Shown: positions 11,606 to 42,565 of the stretch, piece by piece
How the letters are laid out: each line of letters starts with the position of its first letter
Position numbering within the stretch: position 1 is the first letter of the stretch
DNA from: Eggerthellaceae bacterium
GTDB taxonomy: Bacteria > Actinomycetota > Coriobacteriia > Coriobacteriales > Eggerthellaceae
DNA: 42,767 nucleotides
NCBI GenBank assembly: GCA_017460365.1
Contig: JAFUBE010000786.1
Span: 1-42,767 of the forward strand
Direction of reading: 5' to 3'
Made by a program: the position numbers and the translations under genes
The notes under the pieces: generated by a model
The model's input: the letters and a program-made list of their open reading frames with translations, nothing else
What the model was told of the DNA's origin: nothing
Databases searched by the model: none

Positions 11606-11643
11606 GCGTCCACCTCCATGCCACGCTCGTCCATCGTTTACTC

Positions 11644-12566: not shown

Positions 12567-12584
12567 ACTTCCCCTTTCTCATTT

Positions 12585-12629
12585 GCAAACAAAAAGGAAG
12601 AGACCGTGTCAAACACAGTCCCCTCCTTC
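12585..12629 (-). terminator. intrinsic terminator after 12646..12840
   Basis: Minus strand GAAGGAGGGGAC-TGTGTTTGACACG-GTCTCTTCCTT followed by TTTGTTTG. Confidence 0.6.
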
Positions 12630-12645
12630 TTGGCCCCAATTCGCT

Positions 12646-12840
12646 TCAATCGACAAAGCGAATCTGTTCGGTCCGGTCCGCGCTGTTGCGGATGTAACGG
12701 CTCTTAATCCTCTTGATGGCCGACCTTGCCTTCTCGTACCCGGCACGCTCGCCGAGCCCGAAGCCAAATATCACGCCAATTCCGATTCCGAAGAACGACG
12801 CCACCATCCACACGCACCAAACGTATACCGCATCAAACAT
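12646..12840 (-). CDS. small membrane protein
   Basis: Start trimmed to ATG 12840 (AAAGGAGAAGTC-ATG). MFDAVYVWCVWMVASFFGIGIGVIFGFGLG... Confidence 0.6.
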   Translation of the reverse strand: MFDAVYVWCVWMVASFFGIGIGVIFGFGLGERAGYEKARSAIKRIKSRYIRNSADRTEQIRFVD

Positions 12841-12870
12841 GACTTCTCCTTTCGTTGTTTGCGGATTGTC

Positions 12871-12899
12871 TCCGTAATACGGCATGCGTAATTTGCGGA
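12871..12899 (-). promoter_or_regulatory. promoter repeat copy 4 (variant TCCGCA-N17-TACGGA)
   Basis: Minus strand TCCGCAAATTACGCATGCCGTATTACGGAG, immediately upstream of 12646..12840. Confidence 0.5.
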
Positions 12900-12949
12900 G
12901 AAAAAGAAGATGGATAGCGCCCGTCGCTGTTACGGAATCGAACCGTAAG
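12900..12949 (-). ncRNA. candidate short RNA / leader with tRNA T-arm-like hairpin
   Basis: Lies between promoter copy 5 and a U-tract. Contains TTACGG-TTCGATT-CCGTAA, then AGCG-ACGGG-CGCT, then TCCATCTTCTTTTTCT. No ORF or SD. Confidence 0.3.
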
Positions 12950-12955
12950 TCCGTC

Positions 12956-12984
12956 TCCATAATGCGACTTGCAAATTTTGCGAA
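12956..12984 (-). promoter_or_regulatory. promoter repeat copy 5: TTCGCA-N17-TATGGA
   Basis: Minus strand TTCGCAAAATTTGCAAGTCGCATTATGGAGAC. No ORF follows before the next terminator and promoter. Confidence 0.5.
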
Positions 12985-13160
12985 TGTAGGAGAATATCTA
13001 CACCGACAGGACCGTTGAATGGCTCGCCAAGGAACTTTCGAAGATTGGGTGATACGAGAACTGTTGAAAACTCGAAATATCCGGGTGTAGTAGTCCACCG
13101 CGACAATTTGCGGGCCTTAGAATGGCTTAGAACAAGCCGTTTACCTGCGGCTTTGTAAAC

Positions 13161-13204
13161 AAGAATAAGAAGAGGGTTTGCCGAAATATCCGTCGCGAAA
13201 ACCC
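13161..13204 (-). terminator. terminator-like hairpin after 13245..13430
   Basis: Minus strand GGGTTT...AAACCC stem followed by TCTTCTTATTCTTG. GCAAACCCTCTTCTT also occurs at about 13840-13860. Confidence 0.45.
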
Positions 13205-13244
13205 AAGAGGACCCGCTTTTCTTACTCAACGGGCCCTCGTAGGC

Positions 13245-13430
13245 TTATACCTGATACAGAACCCTAACCGCACAACGAATCGCCCTTCGCTCGAATCCAA
13301 TTCTGAGGGCATCCTGGATGAGTCGAGTCTGAACCTTGCGAGCTTCGATGTCGCTCGCGTATGGTCCATAGACCTCCTCGCCATTTGGCCAGCCCTTGAC
13401 AAAGATCGTCACGCAATACTGAGAACTCAT
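13245..13430 (-). CDS. hypothetical small protein
   Basis: Start trimmed to ATG 13430 (AAAGGAGCAGAA-ATG). 61 aa, MSSQYCVTIFVKGWPNGEEVYGPY... Confidence 0.6.
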   Translation of the reverse strand: MSSQYCVTIFVKGWPNGEEVYGPYASDIEARKVQTRLIQDALRIGFERRAIRCAVRVLYQV

Positions 13431-13457
13431 TTCTGCTCCTTTCGGTGTTCTACCTCC

Positions 13458-13486
13458 TGCCATAAAAGGAGCTGTAAAACCTGCGA
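13458..13486 (-). promoter_or_regulatory. promoter repeat copy 6: TTCGCA-N17-TATGGC
   Basis: Minus strand TTCGCAGGTTTTACAGCTCCTTTTATGGCAGGAGGTAG. 28 nt from the -10 box to the ATG at 13430, the same spacing as copy 7. Confidence 0.55.
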
Positions 13487-13520
13487 AAAGAAAGAAGACG
13501 CCACGCAAATAATCACGTGG
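13485..13520 (-). terminator. intrinsic terminator after 13540..13782
   Basis: Minus strand GCCACG-TGATTATTTG-CGTGGC followed by GTCTTCTTTCTTTT. Confidence 0.65.
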
Positions 13521-13539
13521 CATCTCCTCTTCGAACGGT

Positions 13540-13782
13540 CTACTGATTGTCGGCCTTCTTACGGTTCCGAAGCTTCTCCTCAACGATTGGCGTGATGGCA
13601 ACGACAACGCCGACAAAGACGCCCGCCAGGAAGAACTTGCCACAGTTGTCCGACCACCCGTCATGATACATCTGGGCGCCGAACCGCATGATGGAGTTCC
13701 TCTGCTCATCGGTTGCGTTCTTCAACAGTTCGTTGACCGTTTCCATTTCTACTTCGCTGATGATGCTCATCTTGTTTGCCAT
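13540..13782 (-). CDS. small protein with C-terminal TM segment
   Basis: Start trimmed to ATG 13782 (AAAGGAGACATC-ATG). 80 aa, ...GKFFLAGVFVGVVVAITPIV... Confidence 0.6.
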   Translation of the reverse strand: MANKMSIISEVEMETVNELLKNATDEQRNSIMRFGAQMYHDGWSDNCGKFFLAGVFVGVVVAITPIVEEKLRNRKKADNQ

Positions 13783-13810
13783 GATGTCTCCTTTCAAGTC
13801 GGCAAACCGT

Positions 13811-13839
13811 CCCGTAAAAGGAGTTGCAAAACCTGCGAA
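13811..13839 (-). promoter_or_regulatory. promoter repeat copy 7: TTCGCA-N17-TACGGG
   Basis: Minus strand TTCGCAGGTTTTGCAACTCCTTTTACGGGAC. Confidence 0.55.
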
Positions 13840-13916
13840 GAAAAAGAAGAGGGTTTGCGGAAATTGCAAAACTAATACTCCTTGCAATCCCTACCCAACC
13901 TCCGTATAAACTTGCT
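13838..13916 (-). ncRNA. candidate short RNA / attenuator leader
   Basis: Lies downstream of promoter copy 8. Long imperfect hairpin GGGTAGGGATTGCAA-loop-TTGCAATTTCCGCAAACCC followed by TCTTCTTTTTCTT. Has no ATG-initiated ORF, but an SD-preceded TTG at 13887 opens an in-frame N-terminal extension of 13540..13782 (the 115-aa track ORF). Confidence 0.3.
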
Positions 13917-13922
13917 TTCCTT

Positions 13923-13951
13923 CTCATAAGAGGACCGGCAAGTTTTGCGAA
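13923..13951 (-). promoter_or_regulatory. promoter repeat copy 8: TTCGCA-N17-TATGAG
   Basis: Minus strand TTCGCAAAACTTGCCGGTCCTCTTATGAGAAGG. Confidence 0.5.
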
Positions 13952-13995
13952 AAATCCCCGCCGGGAAAAATTTGAACTTCGAATCTTGAACTTTG

Positions 13996-14049
13996 TGTAG
14001 GAACGAGCGATGTAGGAATGATGTAGAAGTAATGCAAGAATATCCTACA
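13996..14049. repeat. cluster of TGTAGGA boxes (direct and inverted)
   Basis: TGTAGGA at 13996 and 14011, TGTAGAA at 14022, inverted TCCTACA at 14043. Further TGTAGGA copies at 14186 and 12985. Confidence 0.6.
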
Positions 14050-14087
14050 ATCGGCCGCTTTTACCGACGACTAATGGCTATTAAGTC

Positions 14088-14170
14088 CGCAGGTAGACAT
14101 ACATATGCCAAGGTGTGCGGAGCAGGCCTCAACTACTGGCGGTAATCATACAGACCATCGTCTACCTGCG
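14088..14170. repeat. 11-bp perfect inverted repeat with 61-nt spacer
   Basis: CGCAGGTAGAC at 14088-14098 pairs with GTCTACCTGCG at 14160-14170. Confidence 0.7.
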
Positions 14171-14234
14171 CAAATATCCGTCCGATGTAGGAGCGGTGTA
14201 TCAACCAACGACCATGGTTCACCACGAAGCGTAA

Positions 14235-14268
14235 CGCCCCTCCCCGATTTTTGAACCGAGGAGGGGCG
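14235..14268 (-). terminator. GC-rich hairpin ending the late/lysis transcription unit
   Basis: CGCCCCTCC-N16-GGAGGGGCG, about 95 nt downstream of the stop of 14363..14692. The U-tract is weak. Confidence 0.4.
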
Positions 14269-14362
14269 CGTCATTGCCGTGCGCATGCAAATATGACTGA
14301 GAAAGGAGGCGGAAAGGCAGTCAAGGAAGGAGAAGGGGAAGGCGCAGCGCACGACGGATGAC

Positions 14363-14692
14363 CTAAGACTTGAAGTCCTCGCTCGAAGAACGAATCGGCA
14401 AGCGGTCTACCTCAGCCATGATCTTCGTGGCCGAACCGTTACCGCCTGCGTCGTGGTATGGCTCGTAGAGATATGTTCTGAAGTTCTCGTATTCATCGGC
14501 AGTGATGCTGCCCTGGTGAATATACTGCATGCCAAGGGTCATGATTCTGTCGTGAGCGAGGCCAATTAGCAGTCTGTTTGTTGCGCTGTTCTTGTCTTGC
14601 CGGTGCATCCACCACGTCCAAAATCCGTTGGAGGCGATGACTGCGCAGACAACGGTTAGAACCATGTTGACAATGGGGTTGAGTTCGACCAT
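14363..14692 (-). CDS. membrane-anchored protein
   Basis: 109 aa. N-terminal TM IVNMVLTVVCAVIASNGFWTWW. Confidence 0.6.
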   Translation of the reverse strand: MVELNPIVNMVLTVVCAVIASNGFWTWWMHRQDKNSATNRLLIGLAHDRIMTLGMQYIHQGSITADEYENFRTYLYEPYHDAGGNGSATKIMAEVDRLPIRSSSEDFKS

Positions 14693-14707
14693 GCAGCATC
14701 ACCGACT

Positions 14708-15109
14708 CTAAGCCTGACGCCTGATGAACAGCGTTGGCGATTCCACGACGACTTCGGCCGTTCCAGTGTTCGTGACGGTCACCGTCTCCGGGCCGCAGCA
14801 GCACGTGCGAACGGCGGTGTTCTTGGCGACGTTGTTGAGGTCGCCAGAGGCCGCGGTGGTCGAGACCATGGTTGTCTCGATGAGCGGCGAGCCGTTGATA
14901 TCAATCGCAAGCTGCGCGGGTCCAGGCACCGAGGCGCCGATGTTCGCGCTGAAATGCACGTTGTAAATGGCCTGCTGCTGGCGAAGGATGACCGAGCCCG
15001 TGTTCGGGCGATGGCACTCGGCGCAACCGGTGTGGAGAAACACCGTGTTAAATGTAAGTGACTGACCAGGCGCAAGCGTCTGGCTAGCCGTGTTAGTCAG
15101 AATAATCAC
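14708..15109 (-). CDS. BclA C-terminal-domain-like (C1q/TNF-like jelly roll) protein, tentative
   Basis: 133 aa. GTG start with GGGGA 8 nt upstream. By eye the motif order matches the BclA CTD: LTFNTV ... IYNVHFSANIG ... LAIDINGSPL ... LFIRRQA. Contains a CCC cluster. Confidence 0.4.
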   Translation of the reverse strand: MIILTNTASQTLAPGQSLTFNTVFLHTGCAECHRPNTGSVILRQQQAIYNVHFSANIGASVPGPAQLAIDINGSPLIETTMVSTTAASGDLNNVAKNTAVRTCCCGPETVTVTNTGTAEVVVESPTLFIRRQA

Positions 15110-15121
15110 TTACATCATCCC

Positions 15122-15742
15122 CTACATGCCAAAGCTGTTGCAGTTGCAGAAGGGGTTATAGCCTGCGTTATACGAGGTCGACATCGGGTAGCGCACGACG
15201 CCAGCCATCTGAGCCTGAAGGTTGAGGTCGTTGACCTGCTGCTGAAGCGCCTCAATCTTGTTCTGCTGCATCATGGCTCGAGTCGCGTTGCCCTCTGCCT
15301 GGATGGCCTGCTTGATGTCGCAGCAACACTGCTGCTGATTGAAGTTGGTCTGCTGCTGCATCATTGCAACGCCAGAAATATCACGCTGGAGCTCGTTGTA
15401 CTTGTCAGTAAACATGCCCATCAGATACTGCGCGTTCTGGTTTGCGTTCTGCATGCCCTGCAGCGAGTTGCCGTTAATCGCCGCAAGAATATCACGCTGG
15501 TTCGCCATGGAGTTCTGGTTGTCGAAACCGCGCTGAACCTCGTTCGACGTGGCAAGATTCTCGTAGCCGATGGCATTCTGGAAGCCGTTGTTGCCCCAGT
15601 TGCCGCCCCACATCATCGCGAGGAACAGGATGACAATCCACCACGAATTGCCACCCCAGCCGTCGCCGTAACCGTTGCCACGCATGACGGCCGCAACGTC
15701 TGCCGGACCCATTCCGCCACCGCCAATAGCATTCTCTCCCAT
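15122..15742 (-). CDS. Gly/Trp-rich and Gln/Asn-rich membrane protein with Cys clusters
   Basis: 206 aa. GGAGGAGCATAA-ATG. TM segment WWIVILFLAMMWGG, a Q/N-rich predicted coiled coil, then CCCD and FCNCNSFGM. Confidence 0.6.
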   Translation of the reverse strand: MGENAIGGGGMGPADVAAVMRGNGYGDGWGGNSWWIVILFLAMMWGGNWGNNGFQNAIGYENLATSNEVQRGFDNQNSMANQRDILAAINGNSLQGMQNANQNAQYLMGMFTDKYNELQRDISGVAMMQQQTNFNQQQCCCDIKQAIQAEGNATRAMMQQNKIEALQQQVNDLNLQAQMAGVVRYPMSTSYNAGYNPFCNCNSFGM

Positions 15743-15756
15743 TTATGCTCCTCCAA

Positions 15757-15930
15757 TCAGAAGCCCAAGAGGTTTCTCACTTGGTTCGGGTTAATGTTTT
15801 GGAACTGCGCATAGTCCAGGCCCTGCTCCCGGAACGCATCCTCGGGAGAACGCCCTCGCATCGAATCAGCGAACTGCCTAAAGCGAGGGTTGGCCTGGTA
15901 TAGCTTGTTGAATATAAGTTGCTGCGCCAT
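15757..15930 (-). CDS. hypothetical small protein
   Basis: Start trimmed to ATG 15930, 1 nt after the upstream TAA. The longer 81-aa form would overlap 15932..17002 by 70 nt. Confidence 0.45.
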   Translation of the reverse strand: MAQQLIFNKLYQANPRFRQFADSMRGRSPEDAFREQGLDYAQFQNINPNQVRNLLGF

Positions 15931-15931
15931 G

Positions 15932-17002
15932 TTAACGGGACCGACCGGCGGTCGCTGTGGCGTTGGTTGCCCCAGATTCGGAGGCATTAGCGGACTTGCC
16001 ATGGAGCATCTCCTTCAGCTGCTCGAATTCTTCGCGGGTGATGAAGTCAGCCGTCTGCCCCATGTCACCGCCCATCGGCATCTGCTGACCCTGCATCAGC
16101 GGGGACAGGTGCTGAGGCATCTCCTCCGAGCACTCCTCGAAACGGAACACTCGGATGCCGTTGCAGTTCCCCTGCTGGTCGAAGCTGACGACGTACATCA
16201 GAGGCTTGTCCTCGTCGAAGAGCGCCTTCCTCGAGTTTGGATCGCCGCGGAAGTTCTTCGCTCCCTCGATGCCCATGACGAACGGCAGGTCGTTGGTCAT
16301 CCCCTGAGGATAGCCCGTGTTTGCCTGCGAATATCCGTTCATTTGACCGAGGTTGCCCTGAGGATAGCCCTGATACATCGGTCGACCCATGCCCTGCGAA
16401 TATCCGTTGTTCCAACCCTGCGGGTACATGTAGCCCTGAGGGACAGTGGTCTGCGGCCATCCGCTGTTTGGCGTGGTGTTGTACACTGGCACTTGCTTGT
16501 CACCTTCTTCCGTCTTTTCATCGTCGGCGGGAGGGCGGAGAATATAATCCCATTCCTTGTCGAAGGTCGTTACAGGGTGTCGTTCTATCTCGTGCCCGGT
16601 CTGGTCACCGGCCTTGCCGACGTAACCGCCTGTCTCACTGCCCGTGGCACCGACACTCTCTCCGCCCCCGACGTACACTTCTGCGTGCAACGCGAGGTTT
16701 AGGAGAATATCTCCGATCTCGAGGTCACTGATTCCAACGTTGGCAAAGGGAAGGATCTGGAAGCCAGCCTTTTCGAAGTCCTTGAGCATCGTTCCTGTGA
16801 ACCTCACTTTGTCACGCCCAGTCCCGACGGGGTAACCAGCGTCGTTCGCCGCCTGGTACAGCAGTGACGAGCAGTCGAAATCTGGTCCCCATCTGCCGGA
16901 CGGAGGCTTCTGTGAATATCCGTGAGAATCGTCATTTGCATAGTAAAGAGCTCTGTCGACAAACGCTTCGCGTCGACTTTTCACGGGAGGACCTCTCGCC
17001 AT
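15932..17002 (-). CDS. cell-wall hydrolase-like protein (Amidase_5 / NlpC-P60-like Cys-peptidase N-domain) with Q/G/Y/P low-complexity linker
   Basis: 356 aa. N-domain HGYSQKPPSGRWGPDFDCSSLLYQAANDAGY...LALHAEVYVG resembles the Cys/His peptidase of pneumococcal-phage Pal-type lysins (from memory). Linker has GYMYPQG / GYSQG / GYPQG repeats. Confidence 0.5.
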   Translation of the reverse strand: MARGPPVKSRREAFVDRALYYANDDSHGYSQKPPSGRWGPDFDCSSLLYQAANDAGYPVGTGRDKVRFTGTMLKDFEKAGFQILPFANVGISDLEIGDILLNLALHAEVYVGGGESVGATGSETGGYVGKAGDQTGHEIERHPVTTFDKEWDYILRPPADDEKTEEGDKQVPVYNTTPNSGWPQTTVPQGYMYPQGWNNGYSQGMGRPMYQGYPQGNLGQMNGYSQANTGYPQGMTNDLPFVMGIEGAKNFRGDPNSRKALFDEDKPLMYVVSFDQQGNCNGIRVFRFEECSEEMPQHLSPLMQGQQMPMGGDMGQTADFITREEFEQLKEMLHGKSANASESGATNATATAGRSR

Positions 17003-17020
17003 GCGGGATGAAATATCCTG

Positions 17021-17734
17021 CTAGTCACCGAGCAGCGTCGGCCACGTCTTGGCGCCGCAGATGCCGTCAGGATACAGCCCGACCTTGGTCTGCCACGCCT
17101 TAACACACTTCTCGGTGTAGCTTCCGAAATCGGCGTCAATCTTGATGCCAGCGCCGTTTCGCATGTTTAGGAGGCCTTGAAGGACCGCTACGGCGTTGCC
17201 CTTGCTGCCCTTCTTCACCTGACCGGGGTAGTACAACTTCTCCTCCTTCTTCTTGCCGGCCCACTTGGCCGCGAGGTAGACGTTGGCGCGTGCAATCTCC
17301 CACTGGTAGTCCATGTTCGCGGGACACGCGGTCGACGCGAACTCCCTGTGCAACCTGACGTTCGAGCCGAGGGTAAGCTTCTTCCACCCCATGCGGTAGG
17401 CAATATCAGCCATGAGCTGAGCGCCACGGTCGAGACACGCCTTCGACGGCGGGTTGGCGGTGGTGCCGACATGCTCGATGGAGATAGTCTTGCAGTTCCA
17501 CGGCCAATTGCCAACAGACCACGCGGTATCGGACTCGGAGACGTACTGGTGTGTTACGCTGTCAGAGACGGCGTAATGTGTGCTGACCTTGCGGGAGCTG
17601 TAGGGGCCGAAGGTGTTGTCGATTGCCCCGATGCTCGAGCAGCACGAGATGTGCGGCACGATTGCGACGATGGAATATCCAGAGCGTCCCTTGGTGTAGT
17701 TCTTAGTCCACATCCACATCGCCATCGGGATCAC
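17021..17734 (-). CDS. endolysin: N-acetylmuramoyl-L-alanine amidase (Amidase_2/PGRP) + PG_binding_1 domain
   Basis: 237 aa. STHYAVSD...AWSVGN...ISIEHVG...HREFASTACP. C-terminal GSKGNAVAVLQGLLN...DADFGSYTEKCVKAWQTKVGLYPDGICGAKTW. The start (GTG 17734 or ATG 17725) is uncertain. Confidence 0.8.
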   Translation of the reverse strand: MIPMAMWMWTKNYTKGRSGYSIVAIVPHISCCSSIGAIDNTFGPYSSRKVSTHYAVSDSVTHQYVSESDTAWSVGNWPWNCKTISIEHVGTTANPPSKACLDRGAQLMADIAYRMGWKKLTLGSNVRLHREFASTACPANMDYQWEIARANVYLAAKWAGKKKEEKLYYPGQVKKGSKGNAVAVLQGLLNMRNGAGIKIDADFGSYTEKCVKAWQTKVGLYPDGICGAKTWPTLLGD

Positions 17735-17788
17735 CTGCCCCCATGGCCTCGGTCTCCTCGTCGTCCATCTCGGGCATCTTGTCGTAGA

Positions 17789-18004
17789 TCACTCGACATC
17801 GACCCCCTTCGCCGTAATCTGCGAGACGCCGATAAGAGCACCGATGAGCACGCCGATAGCGTTGACGGTAAGGACCACGGCCTCAGTGTGAGGCCAGCCC
17901 CAAGCAGGAGCAACCGTACCGTAAAAGACAGCAATGGCTGGACACGCGACGAGTCCGGCCCACTTCAGAACCAGATAGAGCTTCTCCGGGAGAATATAAT
18001 TCAT
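17789..18004 (-). CDS. putative holin
   Basis: 71 aa. TTAGGAGCGAAC-ATG. Two hydrophobic segments and a charged C-terminus. Lies immediately upstream of the endolysin. Confidence 0.55.
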   Translation of the reverse strand: MNYILPEKLYLVLKWAGLVACPAIAVFYGTVAPAWGWPHTEAVVLTVNAIGVLIGALIGVSQITAKGVDVE

Positions 18005-34542: not shown

Positions 34543-36564
34543 CTACTCCGCGGCGTACGGGTTGTAGACGTACTTGACGGAGATGGCTGCGTCGCTGGCA
34601 GGGGCGGTGGTGAAGGTGACATTCTTCCCGGAGACCGCATAGGCGTCAGCACCGACGACCTCGCCTGCGACGGTCACGGAGTCGAGCTCGCCGTCAAGCG
34701 GGGCGTGCGAGAGGGCGAACTGCTTCTTGGAACCGGTGCCGGTGAAGTTCTCGATGACCGAGGTGCCGGTGCGGTGGTTGGTGTAGCCAAGCTCGCGGGC
34801 CTGGACGAACGCCTCGGTCATGGTGCCGACGGTCAGCGTGATGTTGGACGCGGTCTCAGACTCGACGTGCTCGATCGCGATCGCCGAGAAGGGGTTGCGG
34901 AGGGCGCCGGAGCAGCGGGTCTCGATGAGGTACTCATGCTTGTTGTAGTCGATGTTGAAGTCGTCGAACATGTTGACCGCGCCGCCCTTGTCGGCACCGA
35001 CGCCGTAGTCGGAGAGGTTGACGATGATGCCGTCAAGATAGCGGACGGTGCCGTTGACCTCGCGGCTCAGGCCCTCGAGGACGGGGACGGTCACAATCTT
35101 GCTGACACGAAGCGCGGTCGCAAGCTTGGACTCGGAGTCGTAGATGATGCGGCCGTTGAGGTCCTCGAGGAGGAGCAGGTCGGTCAGCATATCCTCGGTG
35201 GTAAACAGAGTCGGGTTGCCAGCGCCACGGTAGTCCTTGCGCGCCTTGACGCAGGAGCGGATGAACGCCTTGGCCTTCTGGTCCGCGGTGGTCGAGGAGG
35301 GCAGGGTCAGGAGCGCCTTGATGGTGAAGAGGTCGGCGTCGGTCCAGATGGGACGGATGTTGAGCTCGTCGATCTTGGCCTCGTCGGAAGCCTCGCGACC
35401 GTCGCCAACGAGAATGGCACGAGCAAGCTCCTCGTCAAGCTGGCCACGCATCTCGCCCTTGATCCAGGCGACGACGTCGAAGTCGGTAATATCAATGACG
35501 TCATCACGGTCGAGCTTCTGGACCTTGTAGATTGTCTTGGGGAGGGTCGAGCGACGCAGGAGCGAGAACACCTGCTCCTTCTTCAGGTTGCCCTTGATGT
35601 AGCCCCTGGCCCTTGCCTCGTCCTCGGTGAGGTTGGCGAACATCGACTTTACGCGGGAGAACGGGGTGTGGTGCACGCCGTTCATGACGGTCTTGACCCA
35701 CTCCTGCGGGCGAGTGATCCACGAGGGAGGGTTGTCAGCGCCCTTGGGCTCGGGGAACAGCCAGTCGATCTCCTCGATGCCGTGCTCGATGACGGCGTCC
35801 TTCAGGGAGCCGCCGCGCTTGGCGTCGGAGAAGATGGACTCCATCTCGGAGTGGGAGAGGTAGTCGTTCTGGTTGTCGTCCTGGTCGAACACGTTGTGCT
35901 TCACGCCGTCGTCCTCCTCGTTGTCGTCGGAACCGCCCTTCTTGGCGTCCTCAACTGCGTTTCCAATCAGAAAGTAAACAACCTGCTTCTGCTCGTCGGT
36001 GAGCTCGTTAAAGACGTCCTGAACGGTCTTCTCAGAGTTGTTAGGCATGGGTTTCTTGTCTCCTTCGGTATTGCTGGTCTCTTTGCTGTCGTCCTTCTCG
36101 TCGTTGTCAGCGTGCTCGAGGTCGAGGCTCTCGCCGGTGTAGATGACGGCCTCCTCCTCGGACATCTCGCCGTGACGGATCACGGACTCGATCATCGCCC
36201 CGGGGTTCGCGCCGGCCAGGACGAGCGACACCTCGCGGATGGCGCCGTGGAGCACGTCACTGCCCTTCTGGCTGAGCCTGTTGGCATAGATGCTCATCGA
36301 GACGATGTCGCCGTGCTCGACGAGCTGCTTGGCGTTCTGCCCGGCCGCGGTGTCGTTGAACGAGCCGTACGCGTAGACTCCCTCGTTTCGGTTCTCGAGA
36401 AGGACGTGCCCGAGAACTTGGTTGGGGTCGTTGTGGTCGTGGTTCCACACAAGAGGAACGACAGCCCCGTCGCAGTCCTTGAACGCGTCAGGACGGATGA
36501 TTCGCCCGTCGGAGCATCGAACGTTGTTCTTGGTGGCCCAGCCCTTGAAGTCGTAATTCTTCAT
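34543..36564 (-). CDS. prohead protease - acidic scaffold linker - HK97-fold major capsid - Ig-like domain fusion
   Basis: 673 aa. N-terminal S78/U35-like protease (VPLVWNHDHNDPNQVLGH..., EVSLVLAGANPGA). Acidic linker EHADNDEKDDSKETSNTEGD. Capsid region ...DVVAWIKGEMRGQLDEELARAILVGDGR... C-terminal ~100 aa are beta-rich. Confidence 0.75.
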   Translation of the reverse strand: MKNYDFKGWATKNNVRCSDGRIIRPDAFKDCDGAVVPLVWNHDHNDPNQVLGHVLLENRNEGVYAYGSFNDTAAGQNAKQLVEHGDIVSMSIYANRLSQKGSDVLHGAIREVSLVLAGANPGAMIESVIRHGEMSEEEAVIYTGESLDLEHADNDEKDDSKETSNTEGDKKPMPNNSEKTVQDVFNELTDEQKQVVYFLIGNAVEDAKKGGSDDNEEDDGVKHNVFDQDDNQNDYLSHSEMESIFSDAKRGGSLKDAVIEHGIEEIDWLFPEPKGADNPPSWITRPQEWVKTVMNGVHHTPFSRVKSMFANLTEDEARARGYIKGNLKKEQVFSLLRRSTLPKTIYKVQKLDRDDVIDITDFDVVAWIKGEMRGQLDEELARAILVGDGREASDEAKIDELNIRPIWTDADLFTIKALLTLPSSTTADQKAKAFIRSCVKARKDYRGAGNPTLFTTEDMLTDLLLLEDLNGRIIYDSESKLATALRVSKIVTVPVLEGLSREVNGTVRYLDGIIVNLSDYGVGADKGGAVNMFDDFNIDYNKHEYLIETRCSGALRNPFSAIAIEHVESETASNITLTVGTMTEAFVQARELGYTNHRTGTSVIENFTGTGSKKQFALSHAPLDGELDSVTVAGEVVGADAYAVSGKNVTFTTAPASDAAISVKYVYNPYAAE

Positions 36565-36571: not shown

Positions 36572-37804
36572 TTAAACCTCCTCTTGCGAAATATCCGGTC
36601 CATTCGCTTCGGCGTTCTGGGGCTGGTTCGGCTGGCTGAGGTTCGGGTTGTCGAGGACGTCCGCCTTGTCGCTCATGGACGGCTTCATGCCGATCTTCTG
36701 CCTGAGCTCATTGGAGGACATGATCTCGTTACGCCTCATCCTGTCAGCGATGTCGGCGAACTTGCTGACGGGGACGAGCCTGAACGGGTCCCTGAAATAT
36801 AGGATTGACTGTCGCTGAGAGATCGCGGTCTTGCTTAGGAACTTGCGCTTCATCTCATCGACGATTGCCGAAATGATTGGCTCGATGGTCCTTGAGTAGT
36901 AGTTGAGCATCGTCTCTTCGTTCGCGGTCCCGTCGAGGATGCTCTGCGTGATGCCAAGCTGGCTGTAGAGCATATTCGTCAGGTACTCGATCTGTGAGAG
37001 GATGTTGTTCTCAACCGAGCGGTTCAGCTGCGTGATGTGCTCCGTGGCGTCGGTGTAAGCGATTCCGTACTTCGAACCCGCAAGCTGATTCTCTATGTCT
37101 TTGCGTCGGTTCTCAGCCTGGACTCGTCGGGCCTCCGTCTTGATGGTGTACGGCAGCTGGATGATAAGGTCTAGCTTTCCCGAGCTCGTCTGCTCATCGA
37201 CGTTGTCTAGCAGCGCTAGTTTGTGCACAAGGCGCTGCATGGTCGATGACGGCTCGTTAATTACGGCGTAGAACGGATTCTCGACGATGGCAACCGATTG
37301 CTTAGGAAGGGTAATCTCTTCCTTCTTGCCAGTCCTGTCGTTATAGAGAAGGACTCGAACGTGCCTCGGCTGCCACCGGACGACCTTACCAGTCCTAAGC
37401 GTGACGATGTCGTATGACGTCGACACGGTCGGGTCGAGCGTGGTGTCTACGGGGACGATGGCGACATGCCCCTCGTCGAGCATCGACATTACGACGTCCT
37501 GAATGAATGCGCGGCTCGTCTGGTCGATGTTGGCTTCAAGGTTGAGACAGCGGTTCAGCCCGGACTTGATTGGTTCGAGGTATCTTCCATCCTCGTCGAG
37601 CCTTACGTGCTCGATTGAGATGGACGCCGCATCCGTGGCGATTCGGTTGTAGACCGCCGTGATGATGGACTTCTCGTTGCCCCTGGTGAACCTGACACGG
37701 TCCGGTCGGTAGCTGTCTATGCTTCCGCCATACGTCCACGCGGTCATCGGCTTTTCATCGATAAACGCGTTCCAGCCGTGCTTAAGGCGGTCTAGAAAAC
37801 CCAT
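36572..37804 (-). CDS. portal protein
   Basis: 410 aa. GGAGGAAATTCAAA-ATG. Size and position upstream of the protease-capsid gene. Confidence 0.65.
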   Translation of the reverse strand: MGFLDRLKHGWNAFIDEKPMTAWTYGGSIDSYRPDRVRFTRGNEKSIITAVYNRIATDAASISIEHVRLDEDGRYLEPIKSGLNRCLNLEANIDQTSRAFIQDVVMSMLDEGHVAIVPVDTTLDPTVSTSYDIVTLRTGKVVRWQPRHVRVLLYNDRTGKKEEITLPKQSVAIVENPFYAVINEPSSTMQRLVHKLALLDNVDEQTSSGKLDLIIQLPYTIKTEARRVQAENRRKDIENQLAGSKYGIAYTDATEHITQLNRSVENNILSQIEYLTNMLYSQLGITQSILDGTANEETMLNYYSRTIEPIISAIVDEMKRKFLSKTAISQRQSILYFRDPFRLVPVSKFADIADRMRRNEIMSSNELRQKIGMKPSMSDKADVLDNPNLSQPNQPQNAEANGPDISQEEV

Positions 37805-37863: not shown

Positions 37864-38028
37864 CTATGTTTCATCTCTCCACAGGGGAAGAGGCAACACG
37901 TCCGGGACGCTTTCTCGAGCAGAGATGTCTCTGTCCACGCGTTTTAGCGCATCAGAAAATAGCGAACGAACAATACCGATGGCGGCCAATAAAACAGCAC
38001 ACCCATTAATGCGTCTGTTATTGTCCAT
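37864..38028 (-). CDS. possible small membrane protein
   Basis: 54 aa from ATG 38028 (GAGGA 5 nt upstream, inside the end of 38018..39193). Hydrophobic GCAVLLAAIGIV. Confidence 0.3.
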   Translation of the reverse strand: MDNNRRINGCAVLLAAIGIVRSLFSDALKRVDRDISARESVPDVLPLPLWRDET

Positions 38029-39193
38029 GTTGATCCTCATACAGTATTTTCCTAACGTAGTATGGAGAAACGCCAACCGTATCGGCAATCTTATCTATGC
38101 TATTGCCGGATGTAGCAGCTAGTGATCGTATTTGAGCATCTCGAGATGCATGCTGCGATTCAGACTCGCGCTTACGCTCTGCCGACTTCTGCTTTCTCAC
38201 AGGGTCGTTAACCCAGTCGCTGGCTGCACCAGCTGCGGATGCTATGCCGACGGCACCAAGTGCCCAACCATATATGCTATGTGATGCCCACCAACCCAAG
38301 TATCGAGCGCCCAATATAGCACGTTCGCGATGGTCGGCTTTAACCATCTCATCGACTGGAACAAGTCGATACGAAGCATTTTTAACAATGTCACGTCCGT
38401 TTTCAACTTGTCCGCCAAAGAAGATGGTCGGAGCTTTCGCTTTGAACCCACCCTTGATGTCGTTGATGTCAATGACGGCGTCATAACCCTTGTCGTGCAA
38501 ATGCTTATAGAATATGTCTTGAGCTCGTCTTGCATCTTTATCGTCAGCGATCAAGCCTTCGCGATTAAAACTCTCATAAGATCCACGAAACCGGTTAATT
38601 GCAAGCTTTCTAAATTCTGGATTCGTTTTTAACAGTTCGTGATAAGCTTTATCTCCACTAGCAATTGAAGCAACTTTTGCTCCCTTTGTCTTGATTGTAA
38701 TCTCATGCACAGGCTTCGAATCATTTGGATGAAACTGTGCTTGCTGTTGTCTTCTTAGATTACCGAGAAGACCAACATACTTTGCTTGATCACGCTTTTT
38801 TGTCGTCGCATAAAACGCTCTGTCGTGCAAATGCGTAGGGTCGTCATCAACGGTAATGCGTTTAATGGGCGTGTCCTCTGGTATGTACTGATCGAGAACA
38901 TACTTATTCGCATAGTGAACTGCCCCAGCAACAGCAACAGTCACAGCAACCGCGCCAAGCGCAATAGCGACCTTCTCACCGCGAATTCTAGACTCTGCAT
39001 GAGCACGTGCTTGTTCATCGGAATATCCTGAAGCTCTGTACTTTTCTTCCAATTTCTGACGGTGAGTCTTCTTCGTTCCGTCTTCATTGTAACGTCTTTT
39101 TCCGGCTTCGGTGAGCGTTCCATCCTTATTCTGGAAACGACGAACACCCCACTTCATGCCCTTGATACCATGGTGATACAAATAATCGGTCAT
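38018..39193 (-). CDS. GIKGMKWG-leader paralog 1 (two TM segments, C-terminal HTH-like motif)
   Basis: 391 aa. GGGAGG RBS. ATGA overlap with the terminase stop. N-terminus MTDYLYHHGIKGMKWGVRRFQNKDGTLTEAGKRRY. TM segments IALGAVAVTVAVAGAV and WALGAVGIASAAGAA. C-terminus GNSIDKIADTVGVSPYYVRKIL. G+C is locally about 40-45% (two 60-nt lines counted). Confidence 0.65.
   Translation of the reverse strand: MTDYLYHHGIKGMKWGVRRFQNKDGTLTEAGKRRYNEDGTKKTHRQKLEEKYRASGYSDEQARAHAESRIRGEKVAIALGAVAVTVAVAGAVHYANKYVLDQYIPEDTPIKRITVDDDPTHLHDRAFYATTKKRDQAKYVGLLGNLRRQQQAQFHPNDSKPVHEITIKTKGAKVASIASGDKAYHELLKTNPEFRKLAINRFRGSYESFNREGLIADDKDARRAQDIFYKHLHDKGYDAVIDINDIKGGFKAKAPTIFFGGQVENGRDIVKNASYRLVPVDEMVKADHRERAILGARYLGWWASHSIYGWALGAVGIASAAGAASDWVNDPVRKQKSAERKRESESQHASRDAQIRSLAATSGNSIDKIADTVGVSPYYVRKILYEDQHGQ
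39129..39193. repeat. direct repeat (5' end of paralog genes), copy A
   Basis: 61 of 65 nt identical to 42501..42565. Confidence 0.85.
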
Positions 39194-40926
39194 TCAAAAG
39201 CCTCCCGATTGAGCTTGTATGCGACGAAGGCGTCCATCATGGCAGCGACGGAGTCAATCTTCGCTTCGTATCGCTTCTTGAGGAGCTTCCTGTTTCCGTT
39301 GGTGTCCTCAATGGTTATGCAGTTGCCCATCGCGAATGTCATGAGTTCCTCGTCAAACAGGAGCATCCTCTCCTCGGCCAACTTCTTCAGCTCGCCTAGC
39401 GGGACAGACTCGGTCTTTGAGCCCTGGATGACCTTCTCGACGCCGTAGTTACCGTTCTCGGCGCACCATCGCTCGACGAACTCTCTCGCGTTGTACGGGT
39501 CGTATCCGAACGTCCTGACGTCGTAGCCGACGCGCTCGATGTACATGTCGAGGTCGTCGTAGACCTCCATCATGTCGAGGATCGTCCCGTTGAGCACGAT
39601 GAGGCTGCCCTCGTTCATGAACGACTCGTACTTGACGCGCATGGCGGCGGGCAACTTCGAGAAGGTGAGCTCGGAGATGTAGCATCTGGTCTTCACGCCG
39701 AACTCGCCGTTCCTCAGAGGGAACAGGAACGTGAACGCGCAGAAGTCGTTGCCCTGGGAGAGGTCCGCACCCATCGAGCACGAGAGTTGCCAGAAGTCGC
39801 GTCGACCATGGGGGAGTGTTTCCTCGTAGGTAAAGTAATAGGTGAATCCCTCGGTCGGGATTCCGAACCTCTTCGCGAGAATATCGTTCCTCGCGGCTGG
39901 CGCCTTCTCGGCACGCTCGACGTCTAGCTGGTATGTCTCGTACGTGACGGTATGGCCGAGGTTAGGGTTCGCCTTGACCCACATCTCCGGGTCGGCGACC
40001 TCCTTGACGTCGTCGAGACGGTACCACCAGATGGACACGTGTGGGTTGTCGTACTCGCCCTTGAGGATGTCCATCAGCTCCATTTTGATTGTGTCGCCAG
40101 CACCGTTTCGTACAGTACCCTCGGACGACGTCGCGACGATGAGGTAGTCGTCGACCTTGGATGCTCCCTGCTCGATTGCTCCGATTACGTCCTCACGAAT
40201 GTCCCCAGAGAGCCACTCGTCTACGGTCGCTATCTTGCAGCGAAGTCCCTGGAGCTTGTCGATAGACATCGGTCGAATCTCGAGAAGGGAGTTCGTCAGG
40301 AAGTTCTCGACGCCCTTCTTGGTAGACGAGAGCTTCTGACGATTGGCCCTTGAACCGGTGGTGTTCTGCAGCGAGCCCTCAGTCAGGAACTTGAACAGCG
40401 GGCCTCTTGCCCTGGCTATCGCCGTCCTGATAGGGCTCATGACCTCCTCCGACTGTTTCATTGTCGGGGCGGTCGTGATTTGATGAGTCGTCGAAGTGTC
40501 GACGTTGAGGGCGTACCCCTGAATCAGGGAGTCATACAAGGACTTGGCCGCCCCTCGCCCGATGATCAGGTACTGCTTGTTCGTGAGGCGCTTCTTGACC
40601 ATCTTGTTGACGTACCGCTTCTGTTTTGGGTCGAAGACAGTGCGCTCGACGAAGTAGTACCACCCAAACACCTGCTCTGCCCACACCTTGAAAGTGTCGA
40701 GCAGTCTGAGGTCTGACCCGTCGGTCAACGTCATCTCAGCTTCCGAGAACCGGACCCATCCCTCGACGGCATCTGGGTCGTAATAGACCCCAGGATTCGC
40801 GATGAGCCGGTCGATGCGGTTCATCTCCATCGAGATCTCGCGGTTGACGGGAATCTCGCCGACAAGAACCTTGTCACGGAAGCGCCCGTAATACTTAGGC
40901 GTGGCCGTGTTCGATAGTCTGCCCAC
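39190..40926 (-). CDS. terL: terminase large subunit
   Basis: 578 aa from GTG 40926 (GGAGGTGACC-GTG). N-terminal KYYGRFRDKVLVGEIPV. P-loop-like IIGRGAAKS. Typical size. Confidence 0.8.
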   Translation of the reverse strand: MGRLSNTATPKYYGRFRDKVLVGEIPVNREISMEMNRIDRLIANPGVYYDPDAVEGWVRFSEAEMTLTDGSDLRLLDTFKVWAEQVFGWYYFVERTVFDPKQKRYVNKMVKKRLTNKQYLIIGRGAAKSLYDSLIQGYALNVDTSTTHQITTAPTMKQSEEVMSPIRTAIARARGPLFKFLTEGSLQNTTGSRANRQKLSSTKKGVENFLTNSLLEIRPMSIDKLQGLRCKIATVDEWLSGDIREDVIGAIEQGASKVDDYLIVATSSEGTVRNGAGDTIKMELMDILKGEYDNPHVSIWWYRLDDVKEVADPEMWVKANPNLGHTVTYETYQLDVERAEKAPAARNDILAKRFGIPTEGFTYYFTYEETLPHGRRDFWQLSCSMGADLSQGNDFCAFTFLFPLRNGEFGVKTRCYISELTFSKLPAAMRVKYESFMNEGSLIVLNGTILDMMEVYDDLDMYIERVGYDVRTFGYDPYNAREFVERWCAENGNYGVEKVIQGSKTESVPLGELKKLAEERMLLFDEELMTFAMGNCITIEDTNGNRKLLKKRYEAKIDSVAAMMDAFVAYKLNREAFE

Positions 40927-40997
40927 GGTCACCTCCGCAAATATCGCAAGCCCTCTTACGGAGGGCTTTGGCCAACAACAAACAGAAAGGAACAAAG

Positions 40998-41354
40998 ATG
41001 AACAACTACGAGTTCGACCAGCTTCGCATCAACGCAAAGAGGAAGGTCATCGCTGTTCGCGACGAGATCGCCGCAGTGACCAGAAGAACCGTGGAGTGGG
41101 CAACCGAGAACCCTGATTTGGCAATGTCAGTCATCGGCGCAACCATCTTCTTCACCAACAAGGCGTGGAAGATCGGCAACGCCGTGGCGGATACGCGCCA
41201 CCAGAATTCGAAAATCTACGACCACTCGCTCGGCATGTACTGGGAGCTGAGGCATCCGCTCACGACCAACGAAAGGATCGCCATCGAGCGCAGACGGAAG
41301 AGCGGTGAGAGCTACGGGCAGATTCTCAGCGACATGAGGCTGTTGAAGCGCTAG
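40998..41354 (+). CDS. plus-strand small membrane protein (the only convincing + strand gene)
   Basis: 118 aa from ATG 40998 (GAAAGGAACAAAG-ATG). Hydrophobic LAMSVIGATIFFTNKAW. Followed by its own terminator. Confidence 0.6.
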   Translation: MNNYEFDQLRINAKRKVIAVRDEIAAVTRRTVEWATENPDLAMSVIGATIFFTNKAWKIGNAVADTRHQNSKIYDHSLGMYWELRHPLTTNERIAIERRRKSGESYGQILSDMRLLKR

Positions 41355-41376
41355 AAGATTTCCAGAAAGACGGGGT

Positions 41377-41409
41377 CTTGCGTAAACATCGCAAGGCCTC
41401 TTCTTTTTT
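41377..41409 (+). terminator. intrinsic terminator (possibly bidirectional)
   Basis: CTTGCG-TAAACAT-CGCAAG followed by GCCTCTTCTTTTTT. Confidence 0.7.
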
Positions 41410-41941
41410 ACTTGTCCTTCAGCACCGAGTAAATCGTGACCGCACTAACTGCAATAGAGGAAGCAGCAGCGACGTACTGAAGGCCTGTTGCGACACGCTC
41501 CATCGCCGTTGGCTCCTCGGTAAGCCTTGTGTAATTTGTCTCCATGTTGAGACGGTTGATGATCTGCTGGAGTTCCTTGTCAGAAGTACGCGCCATCTCC
41601 TCTTGAGTGAGGGTCTTGTGGTTGCCGGCGTAACGATTAGACGGCTTTCCGCTCTTCGCAATATCGGAAACCGTGTTTGCAATAGTGTGTGCGCTCTTAT
41701 CAATCTTGCTCATGCGCTTGACGTCTTTGTCATTGACAGAATTCAAACGCTGCTTGGCTCCGCGCACACGACTGTAAGTTTTTGGGGCAAGGGCATCAAA
41801 GTCAGACTGAGAATAGTATCGCTTCTTACCAGCCTCGGTCAAAGTTCCGTCGGTATTCCTGAACCGTCGGATGCCCCACTTCATGCCTTTGATGCCGAAG
41901 TGACACAAATGATTACCGTTAATCGCGTTTGGCGTAAACAT
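41408..41941 (-). CDS. GIKGMKWG-leader paralog 2 (C-terminal TM)
   Basis: 177 aa from ATG 41941 (AAGGGA 8 nt upstream). ...HLCHFGIKGMKWGIRRFRNTDGTLTEAGKKRYY... C-terminal hydrophobic LQYVAAASSIAVSAVTIYSVL. Confidence 0.6.
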   Translation of the reverse strand: MFTPNAINGNHLCHFGIKGMKWGIRRFRNTDGTLTEAGKKRYYSQSDFDALAPKTYSRVRGAKQRLNSVNDKDVKRMSKIDKSAHTIANTVSDIAKSGKPSNRYAGNHKTLTQEEMARTSDKELQQIINRLNMETNYTRLTEEPTAMERVATGLQYVAAASSIAVSAVTIYSVLKDK

Positions 41942-41953
41942 GGCAATCATCCC

Positions 41954-42565
41954 TTAATTGTCAAGTTCGGCTAGTGCTCTCATCGCACCCAATCCAGCAC
42001 TGGCAACAACGATAGCCCCGATTGAGACCATCGTGTCATGACGAGTAAGATCATCGATGATTTGATCACCGTACTTTTCACGCATAATTCTATCGGTTTC
42101 CCTGCCGGCGTCGATAAGTGGCTTGTTCATACCGAAGAATGAATATACATACTCGTCACTAACAAGTCTCTTGGGGAAAGTCTTTTTGGCCCATGCGATC
42201 TGATTGTTCTTGTATCGTTCTTTCCGGTCGCTAACGTAATCCTTACGAACAATCTGCTCGTCACGTCTACGTTCTAGCTTCTTAACAGCATCGTCGGACG
42301 CGCCAGAAGCCTTGGCAATGGCAAGCTTACGCTCAGAACGGTCAATCGCTCTATCCATTCTGCGATTATACCGTTCGTTATCTCGGTCAAGACTCTTGCC
42401 AATACGCTGCACTTGCCGGGTTCGGAATCCTCTAGCGAAGCCAGCGTCGGCTTCGCCATAGTATCGCTTCTTACCCGCAGGCGTAAGTGATCCGTCTGTG
42501 TTCTGGAACCGGCGAACACCCCACTTCATGCCCTTGATGCCGTGGTGATACAAATAATCGGTCAT
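41954..42565 (-). CDS. GIKGMKWG-leader paralog 3 (C-terminal TM)
   Basis: 203 aa. AAAGGAGAATCA-ATG. MTDYLYHHGIKGMKWGVRRFQNTDGSLTPAGKKRYY. C-terminal MVSIGAIVVASAGLGAM. Confidence 0.65.
   Translation of the reverse strand: MTDYLYHHGIKGMKWGVRRFQNTDGSLTPAGKKRYYGEADAGFARGFRTRQVQRIGKSLDRDNERYNRRMDRAIDRSERKLAIAKASGASDDAVKKLERRRDEQIVRKDYVSDRKERYKNNQIAWAKKTFPKRLVSDEYVYSFFGMNKPLIDAGRETDRIMREKYGDQIIDDLTRHDTMVSIGAIVVASAGLGAMRALAELDN
42501..42565. repeat. direct repeat (5' end of paralog genes), copy B
   Basis: 61 of 65 nt identical to 39129..39193. Confidence 0.85.

Follow-up and report, generated by a model that had tools for sequence, protein, structure and literature searches.

The internal proteins of T-even phages are a diverse defence set that shares only a capsid-targeting sequence (CTS), by which these proteins are encapsidated into the scaffolding core (PMC3012670). 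In this study, we analyzed a stretch of 42,767 nucleotides (nt) from an Eggerthellaceae bacterium (GenBank assembly GCA_017460365.1, contig JAFUBE010000786.1; the whole stretch is called the window in the following), which is a section of a phage genome from the lineage of Lactococcus 1706, ReqiPepy6 and FP_oengus. Around its large terminase gene (terL), several otherwise different genes encode a common leader of about 35 residues; they are members of the Pfam family DUF7211 (PF23847). This leader could be a capsid-targeting, protease-processed tag on varied cargo, analogous to the CTS of T4, and the tagged proteins would then be head-internal and delivered together with the DNA. We assign this reading a probability of roughly 0.5. 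A capsid-targeting or protease-processed signal was already considered in the initial annotation of the window, and it appears to fit the comparative evidence best, namely the linkage of the leader genes to terL and the portal gene, the label of the leader protein gp07 of phage 1706, a motif at the module boundaries of related polyproteins and the effector-type cargo.

The CTS of T4 is removed by the prohead protease. Like the CTS of IPI, IPII, IPIII, Alt and other internal proteins of T-even phages, the leader of the window is a short, conserved N-terminal sequence on otherwise unrelated proteins that are encoded at a hyperplastic locus. However, the two share no sequence similarity and differ in length (about 10 versus about 35 residues). 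T4, a myovirus, has the gp21 protease and a scaffold core of its own, whereas the window phage has a siphovirus-type genome in which an S78 protease is fused to the capsid protein. Encapsidation and cleavage were demonstrated in T4 and are proposed here for the leader proteins, and polyprotein forms are found in relatives of the window but not in T4.

Polyvalent proteins and MuF-toxin fusions of phages and conjugative elements were reportedly described by Iyer et al. in J Bacteriol and by Jamet et al. in BMC Biol, both in 2017. Relatives of the window are similar to them in having giant strings (up to 1569 amino acids, aa) of disparate modules, including GNAT and papain-fold deamidase domains, which are encoded beside head genes. 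In contrast to these proteins, no MuF domain is present here, the modules of the window are separate genes and the fold matches are weak (E 0.009-0.09). To our knowledge, polyvalent proteins have not been described with a specific short leader before each module. According to three reports, many head-internal proteins of phiKZ/SPN3US-like phages and P1 undergo cleavage by the prohead protease and are passed on to the host (PMC7411985, PMC10052503, PMC9024508). The concept is the same, but these phage groups are unrelated and their ejection proteins have no common leader of this type. Closer to the window are the phages ReqiPepy6, OhMyWard, Count and FP_oengus, which form together with Lactococcus phage 1706 and Streptomyces BI phages an inter-phylum supercluster sharing this head block (bioRxiv 10.1101/842583).

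Leader genes of the window

Three open reading frames (ORFs) on the minus strand, encoding proteins of 391, 180 and 203 aa (Table 1), were reported in the initial annotation to share the N-terminal motif (H/F)GIKGMKWG(V/I)RRF(Q/R)N.DG(T/S)LT.AGK(K/R)RY, and this was confirmed for all of them. The fuller consensus is (L)xHHGIKGMKWGVRRFQNxDG(T/S)LTxAGKKRY, a stretch of about 35 residues at the N-terminus, which is followed by interchangeable cargo. DUF7211 is a 25-residue family with no recorded function, whose model spans only the first 22 or so residues (xHHGxKGMKWGVRR); the form found in the window is longer by FQNxDGTLTxAGKKRY. The 391-, 180- and 203-aa proteins score 39.1, 28.6 and 40.0 bits, respectively, and all exceed the Pfam gathering score of 27 bits, which was used as the membership cut-off. 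The resemblance is therefore homology and not chance. DUF7211 or its motif is not mentioned in the literature searched, and no annotated phage record gives a function for it.

An identical metagenome contig (45,145 nt, 0 mismatches over 10,814 nt) is present in ENA and extends 2.3 kb beyond the window end. On this contig, gene callers start the second ORF at 41941 (177 aa) instead of 41950 (180 aa). The contig also reveals that the count of three paralogs, although correct for the complete ORFs, is incomplete: a fourth paralog of 166 aa, which is flagged as PF23847 there and precedes the 203-aa gene, is cut by the window end. Beside it, a 79-aa ORF (positions 1712-1951 of the related locus L090, beyond the window end) has a low G+C content at third codon positions (GC3) of 0.51 and no family match, so that the compositionally foreign patch reaches past the leader genes.

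The reported identity of 61 of 65 nt between positions 39129-39193 and 42501-42565 is correct, and the four mismatches all lie at third codon positions and are synonymous. The 166-aa gene (GC3 0.52) is completely identical to the 203-aa gene in its first 65 nt (65/65), so that the 5' ends of the 391-, 203- and 166-aa genes share 61 to 65 of 65 nt. This near-identity points to a recent duplication or gene conversion of the leader. The DNA of the paralogs was also described as AT-richer, which holds true in a windowed calculation: the G+C content is 0.445-0.50 over 37.8-39.0 kb and 41.4-42.6 kb versus 0.55-0.63 nearby. The anomaly is most evident at third codon positions, with a GC3 of 0.40, 0.60 and 0.50 for the 391-, 180- and 203-aa genes versus 0.67-0.88 in 18 of 19 other genes measured; the exception is a 246-aa gene at 11644-12384 (0.61). 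The cargo of the leader genes is compositionally foreign. Taken together with the near-identical 5' ends, the low GC3 suggests that the leader was duplicated or converted recently, while the cargo was imported from relatives with lower G+C content.

It was claimed that the three proteins diverge completely after the leader. Among themselves this is the case, as only trivial alignments are obtained past the leader, but two of them, the 180-aa and the 391-aa protein, each have a large conserved family. The leader (aa 3-35) of the 391-aa protein is followed by a helix with a hydrophobic segment (aa 75-93), a conserved alpha/beta domain (aa ~100-280), which constitutes the family phrog_7502, a long helix and a C-terminus resembling a helix-turn-helix (HTH; aa ~361-389). 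This HTH-like motif, noticed earlier, is weakly indicated by two confident terminal helices in the AlphaFold2 (AF2) model, a match to HTH_AraC (E 0.097) and short winged-helix fold matches. The model has a mean predicted local distance difference test (pLDDT) score of 83 and no significant fold neighbour in the PDB, the best one being the RES toxin NatT (E 0.15). In BFVD it matches uncharacterised homologs (OhMyWard, Qui, Rima, Kenosha) and, weakly, 'large polyvalent protein' entries (E 0.009-0.09). Relatives of the protein are ReqiPepy6 gp020, Gordonia phage OhMyWard gp18 and proteins of Microbacterium phage Count and Faecalibacterium phage FP_oengus. Its cargo cluster comprises 17 members in related loci, of which 16 are located downstream of terL, and the protein is accordingly classified as a member of a common accessory family. 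The start codon of its gene overlaps the terL stop codon (ATGA), which suggests translation together with terL.

The 180-aa protein contains the leader at aa 13-45, a variable linker, a conserved helix with the motif SDKELxxxINRLNxExxYxxL (also given as SDKELxxxINRLNLExQYxxL) and a C-terminal hydrophobic helix. Its AF2 model is all-helical with extended helices and of low confidence (pLDDT 55). By the clustering of its cargo, it is the conserved core member of the lineage. The 203-aa and 166-aa proteins are orphans. Judged from these families, the paralogs of the window are not equivalent: among the three in full view, one is a core, one a common accessory and one an orphan protein.

The leader in related loci and the small terminase

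The leader was searched in 163 related loci. A first set of 89 consists of 80 IMG/VR loci, retrieved by TerL at 76-81% identity, plus phage records and contigs of close relatives, and a second set of 74 was obtained by the converse search of 185,579 species genomes with the leader pattern alone. A hidden Markov model (HMM) of the leader, as called for in the initial annotation, identified 1-8 leader ORFs in 88 of the 89 loci; with a single exception they are encoded on the terL strand, and in most loci they flank terL. Typically, one leader ORF ends at the start of terL and others are located between terL and the portal gene. Over all 163 loci, the genes are almost always placed in two hypervariable slots (connector-terL and terL-portal), with the orientation of terL. 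In the genome set, with 1-9 leader genes per locus, a TerL of the same lineage (67-80% identity) is encoded inside the fetched locus in 65 of 74 cases. Some of these loci are located in complete Clostridia chromosomes, which means that integrated forms exist. The largest set of stand-alone genes, nine around a single terL, was seen in a contig of a metagenome-assembled genome (CAMVKW010000063.1, locus L100). In annotated phages, a motif scan detected the leader in eight proteins of ReqiPepy6 (internally in gp013 and at the N-termini of gp015 to gp021), internally in gp16 and twice in gp18 of OhMyWard and twice in gp07 of 1706.

The first set of loci encodes 158 distinct leader proteins of 72-586 aa, and in 146 of them the leader starts within the first 30 residues. 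Their post-leader parts fall into 35 cargo clusters. Of 52 related leader proteins, 51 matched DUF7211 above or near the gathering score. When a leader profile of 35 columns was run exhaustively with HMMER, 33,723 clusters (50% identity representatives) were retrieved at E<=1e-3, and 22,911 at E<=1e-10. The tag, for which no function is described, is present in at least 33,723 protein clusters. Conservation is much stronger in the leader than in the cargo, and nine of its residues do not vary among 30 diverse sequences, which implies a conserved partner. On the basis of these alignments, the leader is under strong protein-level constraint and the leader genes are modular, combining a conserved tag with interchangeable cargo.

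The same data bear on the idea that the conserved 5' segment serves mainly as a recombination handle at the DNA level for cassette swaps between co-infecting relatives, encoding a peptide of little function. The near-identical 5' ends of the three paralogs, the hypervariable slots with their many cargo clusters and the foreign composition of the cargo would agree with it. However, the peptide is kept across phages of different phyla while the codons vary, just as the four differences within the window are all synonymous; the invariant G, W, H and R positions indicate selection at the protein level, and the module is conserved inside polyproteins as well. We consider this explanation very unlikely, and recombination is probably a consequence of the conservation of the leader and not its cause.

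Each of the three proteins was described to carry one or two transmembrane (TM)-like segments. Indeed, one strongly hydrophobic 19-mer per protein was found (Kyte-Doolittle means of 2.18, 1.69 and 1.73 for the 391-, 180- and 203-aa proteins), and a weaker second one (1.27) in the 391-aa protein. An alternative is that the leader proteins are accessory proteins anchored in the membrane of the infected cell and functioning there, e.g. in superinfection exclusion, the timing of lysis or assembly at the membrane, with the leader as a cytoplasmic interaction domain. ReqiPepy6 gp020 is annotated as a membrane protein, holin and lysin genes are located just upstream of the module in 1706, ReqiPepy6 and OhMyWard, and in the related locus L122 the leader genes follow a gene that is endolysin-like by its N-terminal sequence. 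But just 31 of the 158 related leader proteins contain a strongly hydrophobic segment, so TM segments were rejected as a family trait, and the earlier suggestion of membrane-active cargo is unsupported as a general rule. Many cargos are soluble enzymes or long coiled-coil modules, and polyproteins that mix hydrophobic and soluble modules speak against simple membrane insertion. A role in the membrane would also leave the tight, lineage-wide linkage to terL and the portal gene unexplained. We regard it as unlikely.

The core cargo group has 70 unique members, including the 180-aa protein, the C-terminal parts of ReqiPepy6 gp013 and OhMyWard gp16 and a protein of FP_oengus. In 56 of the 70 members, the gene is located directly upstream of terL; in the window, a plus-strand gene separates the two. 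No small terminase (TerS) was recognised in the window by the initial annotation, and none was found here by Pfam and PHROGs searches. The core member could be a small terminase or a terminase accessory, whose basic leader binds DNA or TerL, and the other paralogs would be duplicated or decayed copies. Its position, the size of the members (110-200 aa), their predicted all-helical character and the conserved amphipathic helix, which would be able to oligomerise, resemble small terminases, and the leader is rich in K/R and aromatic residues. In contrast to small terminases, no N-terminal HTH is present, and searches of Pfam, PHROGs and NCBIfam returned no TerS family for any paralog. The leader heads up to nine proteins per genome, among them enzymes and multi-module polyproteins, the core member of FP_oengus is located downstream of terL, and 1706 gp07 is annotated as a virion protein, which is unlike a TerS. 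The earlier idea that one of the paralogs replaces TerS is not supported by these findings, and we consider a packaging role of the core member improbable. If it nevertheless proves to be a packaging factor, it would be a new type of terminase accessory.

A further candidate is located beyond the window. A canonical TerS just past the window end had been named in the initial annotation as a finding that would speak against its hypothesis. What was found there, about 500 nt past the end, is of this kind: a conserved small protein of the family phrog_4259 accompanied by an HNH endonuclease. The protein is, however, not a canonical, recognisable TerS. The protein (about 110 aa) is always paired with the HNH endonuclease, also in 1706 (orf4) and OhMyWard (gp11). 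The first 89 loci yielded 59 distinct sequences of it, and of the 74 loci of the genome set 58 encode it. It is characterized by a basic N-terminus, a 'GTASSQVITHxLKLGS' helix, a coiled coil and an acidic tail. It has no annotated function and no match in Pfam, NCBIfam or the PDB sequences, and is a TerS candidate by position only. As this pair is located ahead of the module and just outside the window, the apparent lack of a TerS is largely an edge effect, and a paralog that replaces TerS is not needed.

Polyproteins, boundary motif and protease-capsid linker

The best matches to the leader profile are polypeptides of up to 1569 aa, which contain two to five leader-cargo modules. One of them (P0243, 810 aa, four leaders) is encoded between connector and TerL. 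Another one, P0241, with five leaders in 1335 aa, was seen between TerL and portal in three assemblies of independent samples. Their modules include the core module of the window and the phrog_7502 domain, so that the four genes found here appear, by homology, to be the counterpart of one polyprotein in relatives. Several unrelated effector domains in one polypeptide, a feature of polyvalent proteins, are present only in relatives (e.g., P0241-P0249), whereas the window proteins are single modules. No Phage_Mu_F domain (MuF / SPP1 gp7-like) was detected with Pfam in the window proteins or in 52 + 71 relatives.

Internal leaders are frequently preceded by the motif Phi-(K/R)-H-S-D-Phi. It was found upstream of 55% of 214 internal leaders compared to 5% of control windows (11-fold), at a distance of 5-27 residues ahead of L-x-H-H-G. 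At the shortest boundaries (e.g., ...KHSDELAHFG), the residues after the His (S-D-x-L-x-H-H-G) align with the starts of stand-alone proteins such as MTDYLYHHG. Cleavage by the prohead protease of phiKZ-like phages occurs after Glu, unlike this motif.

Similar His sites are present in the head protein of the lineage. The prohead protease (S78) of the window is fused to the major capsid protein and is the presumed processing enzyme and assembly partner of the leader proteins. The acidic linker between its two domains (residues ~140-262 of the fusion) contains three near-invariant His sites of the form Phi-x-H-(S/A/N), which are found in the window at residues 151, 223 ('VKHNVFD') and 238 ('YLSHSE'). 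Among 61 protease-capsid fusions, L-x-H-(S/A) after the protease domain is present in 58, M-K-H-N-V-F-D in 53 (N and F in 61/61) and V-L-S-H-(A/S)-(D/E) in all 61. The three sites are located where the cuts for scaffold removal or maturation are expected. Maturation cleavage may take place at these sites, and the specificity would then be unusual for a prohead protease of the S78 type. The resemblance is suggestive of a common processing of leader boundaries and capsid linker by the prohead protease, a hypothesis built on sequence comparison.

The internal leaders also bear on a possible export function. A secretion-type signal was among the earlier proposals; the arginine pair or the W-G motif would then direct the proteins to the twin-arginine translocation (Tat) or type VII secretion system. 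The 'VRRF' within the leader is superficially twin-arginine-like and the hosts of known members are Gram-positive. However, neither an h-region nor an AxA motif was found after the arginine pair, VRRF being followed by a polar sequence (QNKDGTLTEAGKRRY), and the first hydrophobic segment of the 391-aa protein comes only 55 residues later (from residue 75). There is no signal-peptide-like cleavage context, and the leader is also found inside proteins, up to five times in one of them. A secretion signal is thus unsupported, and we consider export by either route extremely improbable.

Proposed head-internal delivery and further features of the window

The reading of the leader as a capsid-targeting tag can be put in the following form. 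The leader would act as an address tag that draws the proteins into the assembling procapsid, where it would bind the portal, the inside of the shell or, in the protease-capsid fusion, the scaffold-like linker. Inside the procapsid, the prohead protease would trim the leader proteins or separate the modules of polyproteins. The trimmed proteins would be carried in the virion and delivered together with the DNA, and the delivered cargo domains (enzymes, an HTH, hydrophobic helices) would act early in infection. In favour of a location in the virion, 1706 gp07, which carries its two leader copies directly upstream of TerL, is annotated as 'structural protein', and the leader-bearing family phrog_35934 is labelled as virion structural protein. 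The recognised cargo domains are a GNAT acetyltransferase, found in OhMyWard gp18 and in polyproteins, and a papain-fold glutamine deamidase toxin. A 2H phosphoesterase forms the N-terminus of ReqiPepy6 gp013 and OhMyWard gp16, ahead of their internal leader.

Several observations weigh against this reading. Most of the cargo is without a recognisable domain, and an enzyme family was matched by few of 52 and few of 71 proteins scanned. The hydrophobic, TM-like helices of the window copies are awkward for soluble head-internal proteins. The label of 1706 gp07 comes from database annotation. The core family occurs almost universally, at a place where an essential packaging or assembly factor would be; it may not be cargo. 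A comparison of the leader boundary ('lkHsd...L.H') with the capsid linker ('MKHNVFD...VLSH') by hhalign aligned the two, but with P 0.14 the match is not significant. Moreover, 2 of the 74 genome loci contain leader genes without terL nearby; in one of them (L122) the leader genes follow a lysozyme-type-endolysin-like gene, and in the other one a leader gene adjoins a serine-recombinase-like gene, both identities judged by eye from the N-terminal sequence only.

If the leader is indeed a capsid-loading and processing signal, it would be the equivalent of the T4 CTS for siphophages of Gram-positive hosts, including phages of gut Clostridia. It would provide a simple sequence rule for injected effectors, with candidates including anti-defence proteins and toxins in thousands of uncultured phages, and would explain why the genes around terL are hypervariable and of foreign composition in this lineage. 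The tag would also be a portable handle for loading foreign proteins into phage heads. In addition, an unusual specificity of an HK97-type prohead protease for cleavage after His and polyprotein expression in tailed phages would follow. More tentatively, DUF7211 might serve as the universal capsid-loading tag in a very large lineage of siphophages of Gram-positive bacteria, with members in gut, oral and soil habitats. Any protein bearing the tag, whether encoded by a gene of its own or as a polyprotein module, would enter the procapsid, be released by S78 at Phi-K-H|S-D, the type of site at which the capsid protein would be separated from protease and scaffold, and be injected together with the DNA; we hold this extension to be possible but doubtful. 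In that case, the slots beside terL would represent a fast-exchanging arsenal of injected effectors, such as anti-defence enzymes, toxins, DNA-binding and membrane-active proteins. The family itself is catalogued as a DUF, but the picture of the system, with a tag, two slots beside terL, stand-alone and polyprotein forms and a boundary motif resembling the capsid linker, is not described in the literature searched.

In at least 33 related loci, but not in the window, the block is headed by a conserved protein of about 918 aa (locus L017, positions 2682-5438, and equivalents) of the family phrog_4291, annotated as 'RNA-dependent RNA polymerase' and in FP_oengus as 'putative RNA polymerase'. HTH domains are present at its C-terminal end, and its N-terminus, ILMHYG(M/V)(P/K)RRSGRYPWGSG, is invariant and loosely leader-like; with at most 6 bits, the match of this N-terminus to the leader HMM is not significant. 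If the tag reading is true, this RNA-polymerase-like protein might be loaded in a related way, and virion-borne early transcription would then be possible.

Table 1. Leader genes, head genes and related features of the locus. Positions refer to the window unless a related locus (L) is named
Feature	Position	Strand	Basis or remark
Prohead protease (S78) fused to major capsid protein	34543..36564	-	Peptidase_S78 + Phage_capsid, phrog_3270 E 2.5e-221
Acidic linker between protease and capsid domains	35779..36147	-	Three near-invariant His sites
Portal protein, bounds the downstream leader-gene slot	36572..37804	-	Phage_portal E 4.6e-20, phrog_12
391-aa DUF7211 protein	38018..39193	-	Profile match, AF2 model, homologs in 1144 clusters
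Leader-coding segment of the 391-aa gene (aa 1-35)	39089..39193	-	DUF7211 E 4.8e-10
Large terminase, probably 578 aa (mechanical ORF to 40995)	39190..40926	-	TerL_nuclease E 3e-33, phrog_9 E 1e-106
Opposite-strand gene, 118-128 aa, between core leader gene and terL	40998..41354	+	Conserved in close relatives L005, L090, L091
180-aa DUF7211 protein (177 aa from 41941), core family	41408..41950	-	Clustering of the cargo of relatives
203-aa DUF7211 protein, orphan cargo, C-terminal hydrophobic segment aa 180-198	41954..42565	-	Cargo clusters only with its own ortholog
Fourth DUF7211 paralog (166 aa), 3' end, last 62 codons	42580..42767	-	Rest on identical ENA contig
phrog_4259 protein, examples	L090:1061-1303; L017:6050-6382; L003:1379-1729		L090 example ~500 nt past window end

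The presence of terL, the portal gene and the S78 protease-capsid fusion identifies the locus as a head module. For terL, the length of 578 aa is also called on the identical contig, and relatives align from residue ~24-27. In the annotated records of 1706, ReqiPepy6, OhMyWard and FP_oengus, the gene order is small protein, HNH, connector, X, TerL, (Y...), portal and protease-capsid fusion. All components, i.e. phrog_4259, HNH, the Phage_connect_2 connector, TerL (phrog_9), portal (phrog_12) and the S78 fusion (phrog_3270), were found for the window phage; the connector, phrog_4259 and HNH genes are located just past the window end on the identical contig, in an order slightly different from that of the relatives. 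The plus-strand gene between the core leader gene and terL is the sole opposite-strand gene of the head block. It has a normal GC3 (0.81) and one hydrophobic stretch, and no family match was obtained for it in Pfam, PHROGs and NCBIfam searches. The nearest relatives of the window phage come from gut metagenome bins and Clostridia genomes. An actinobacterial host, deduced from megablast matches to terL of Streptomyces phages (~73%), was rejected, as these matches reflect the shared high G+C content and the lineage.

Outside the head module, a 1307-aa ORF (2161-6084, minus strand) shows an end-to-end match to phrog_4210, a DNA polymerase with a primase region. It appears to be the counterpart of GP55 of phage 1706, which is reported to be a 'four-in-one' helicase-AEP primase-PolB replicase (PMC12205980). 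A second set of paralogs, matching phrog_2152, is encoded at 7242-8306, 8937-9821 and 11644-12384 (all on the minus strand). Between 20400 and 22200, the G+C content rises up to 0.65-0.67 over a 570-aa ORF with collagen-like and tail-fibre matches, an outlier in the direction opposite to that of the leader genes.

The hexamer AATATC occurs 82 times on the plus strand of the whole window (1-42767), most densely at 1-18000, and its reverse complement GATATT never occurs there. Its scarcity had been noted as a mark of the paralogs, which was rejected: the density is 0.5-0.8/kb in all structural genes and 0-1.8/kb in the paralogs, compared to 3-5/kb in the replication/early region. With no preference for a codon frame and a weak preference for flanking G/C, AATATC looks like a strand-specific signal at the DNA level.

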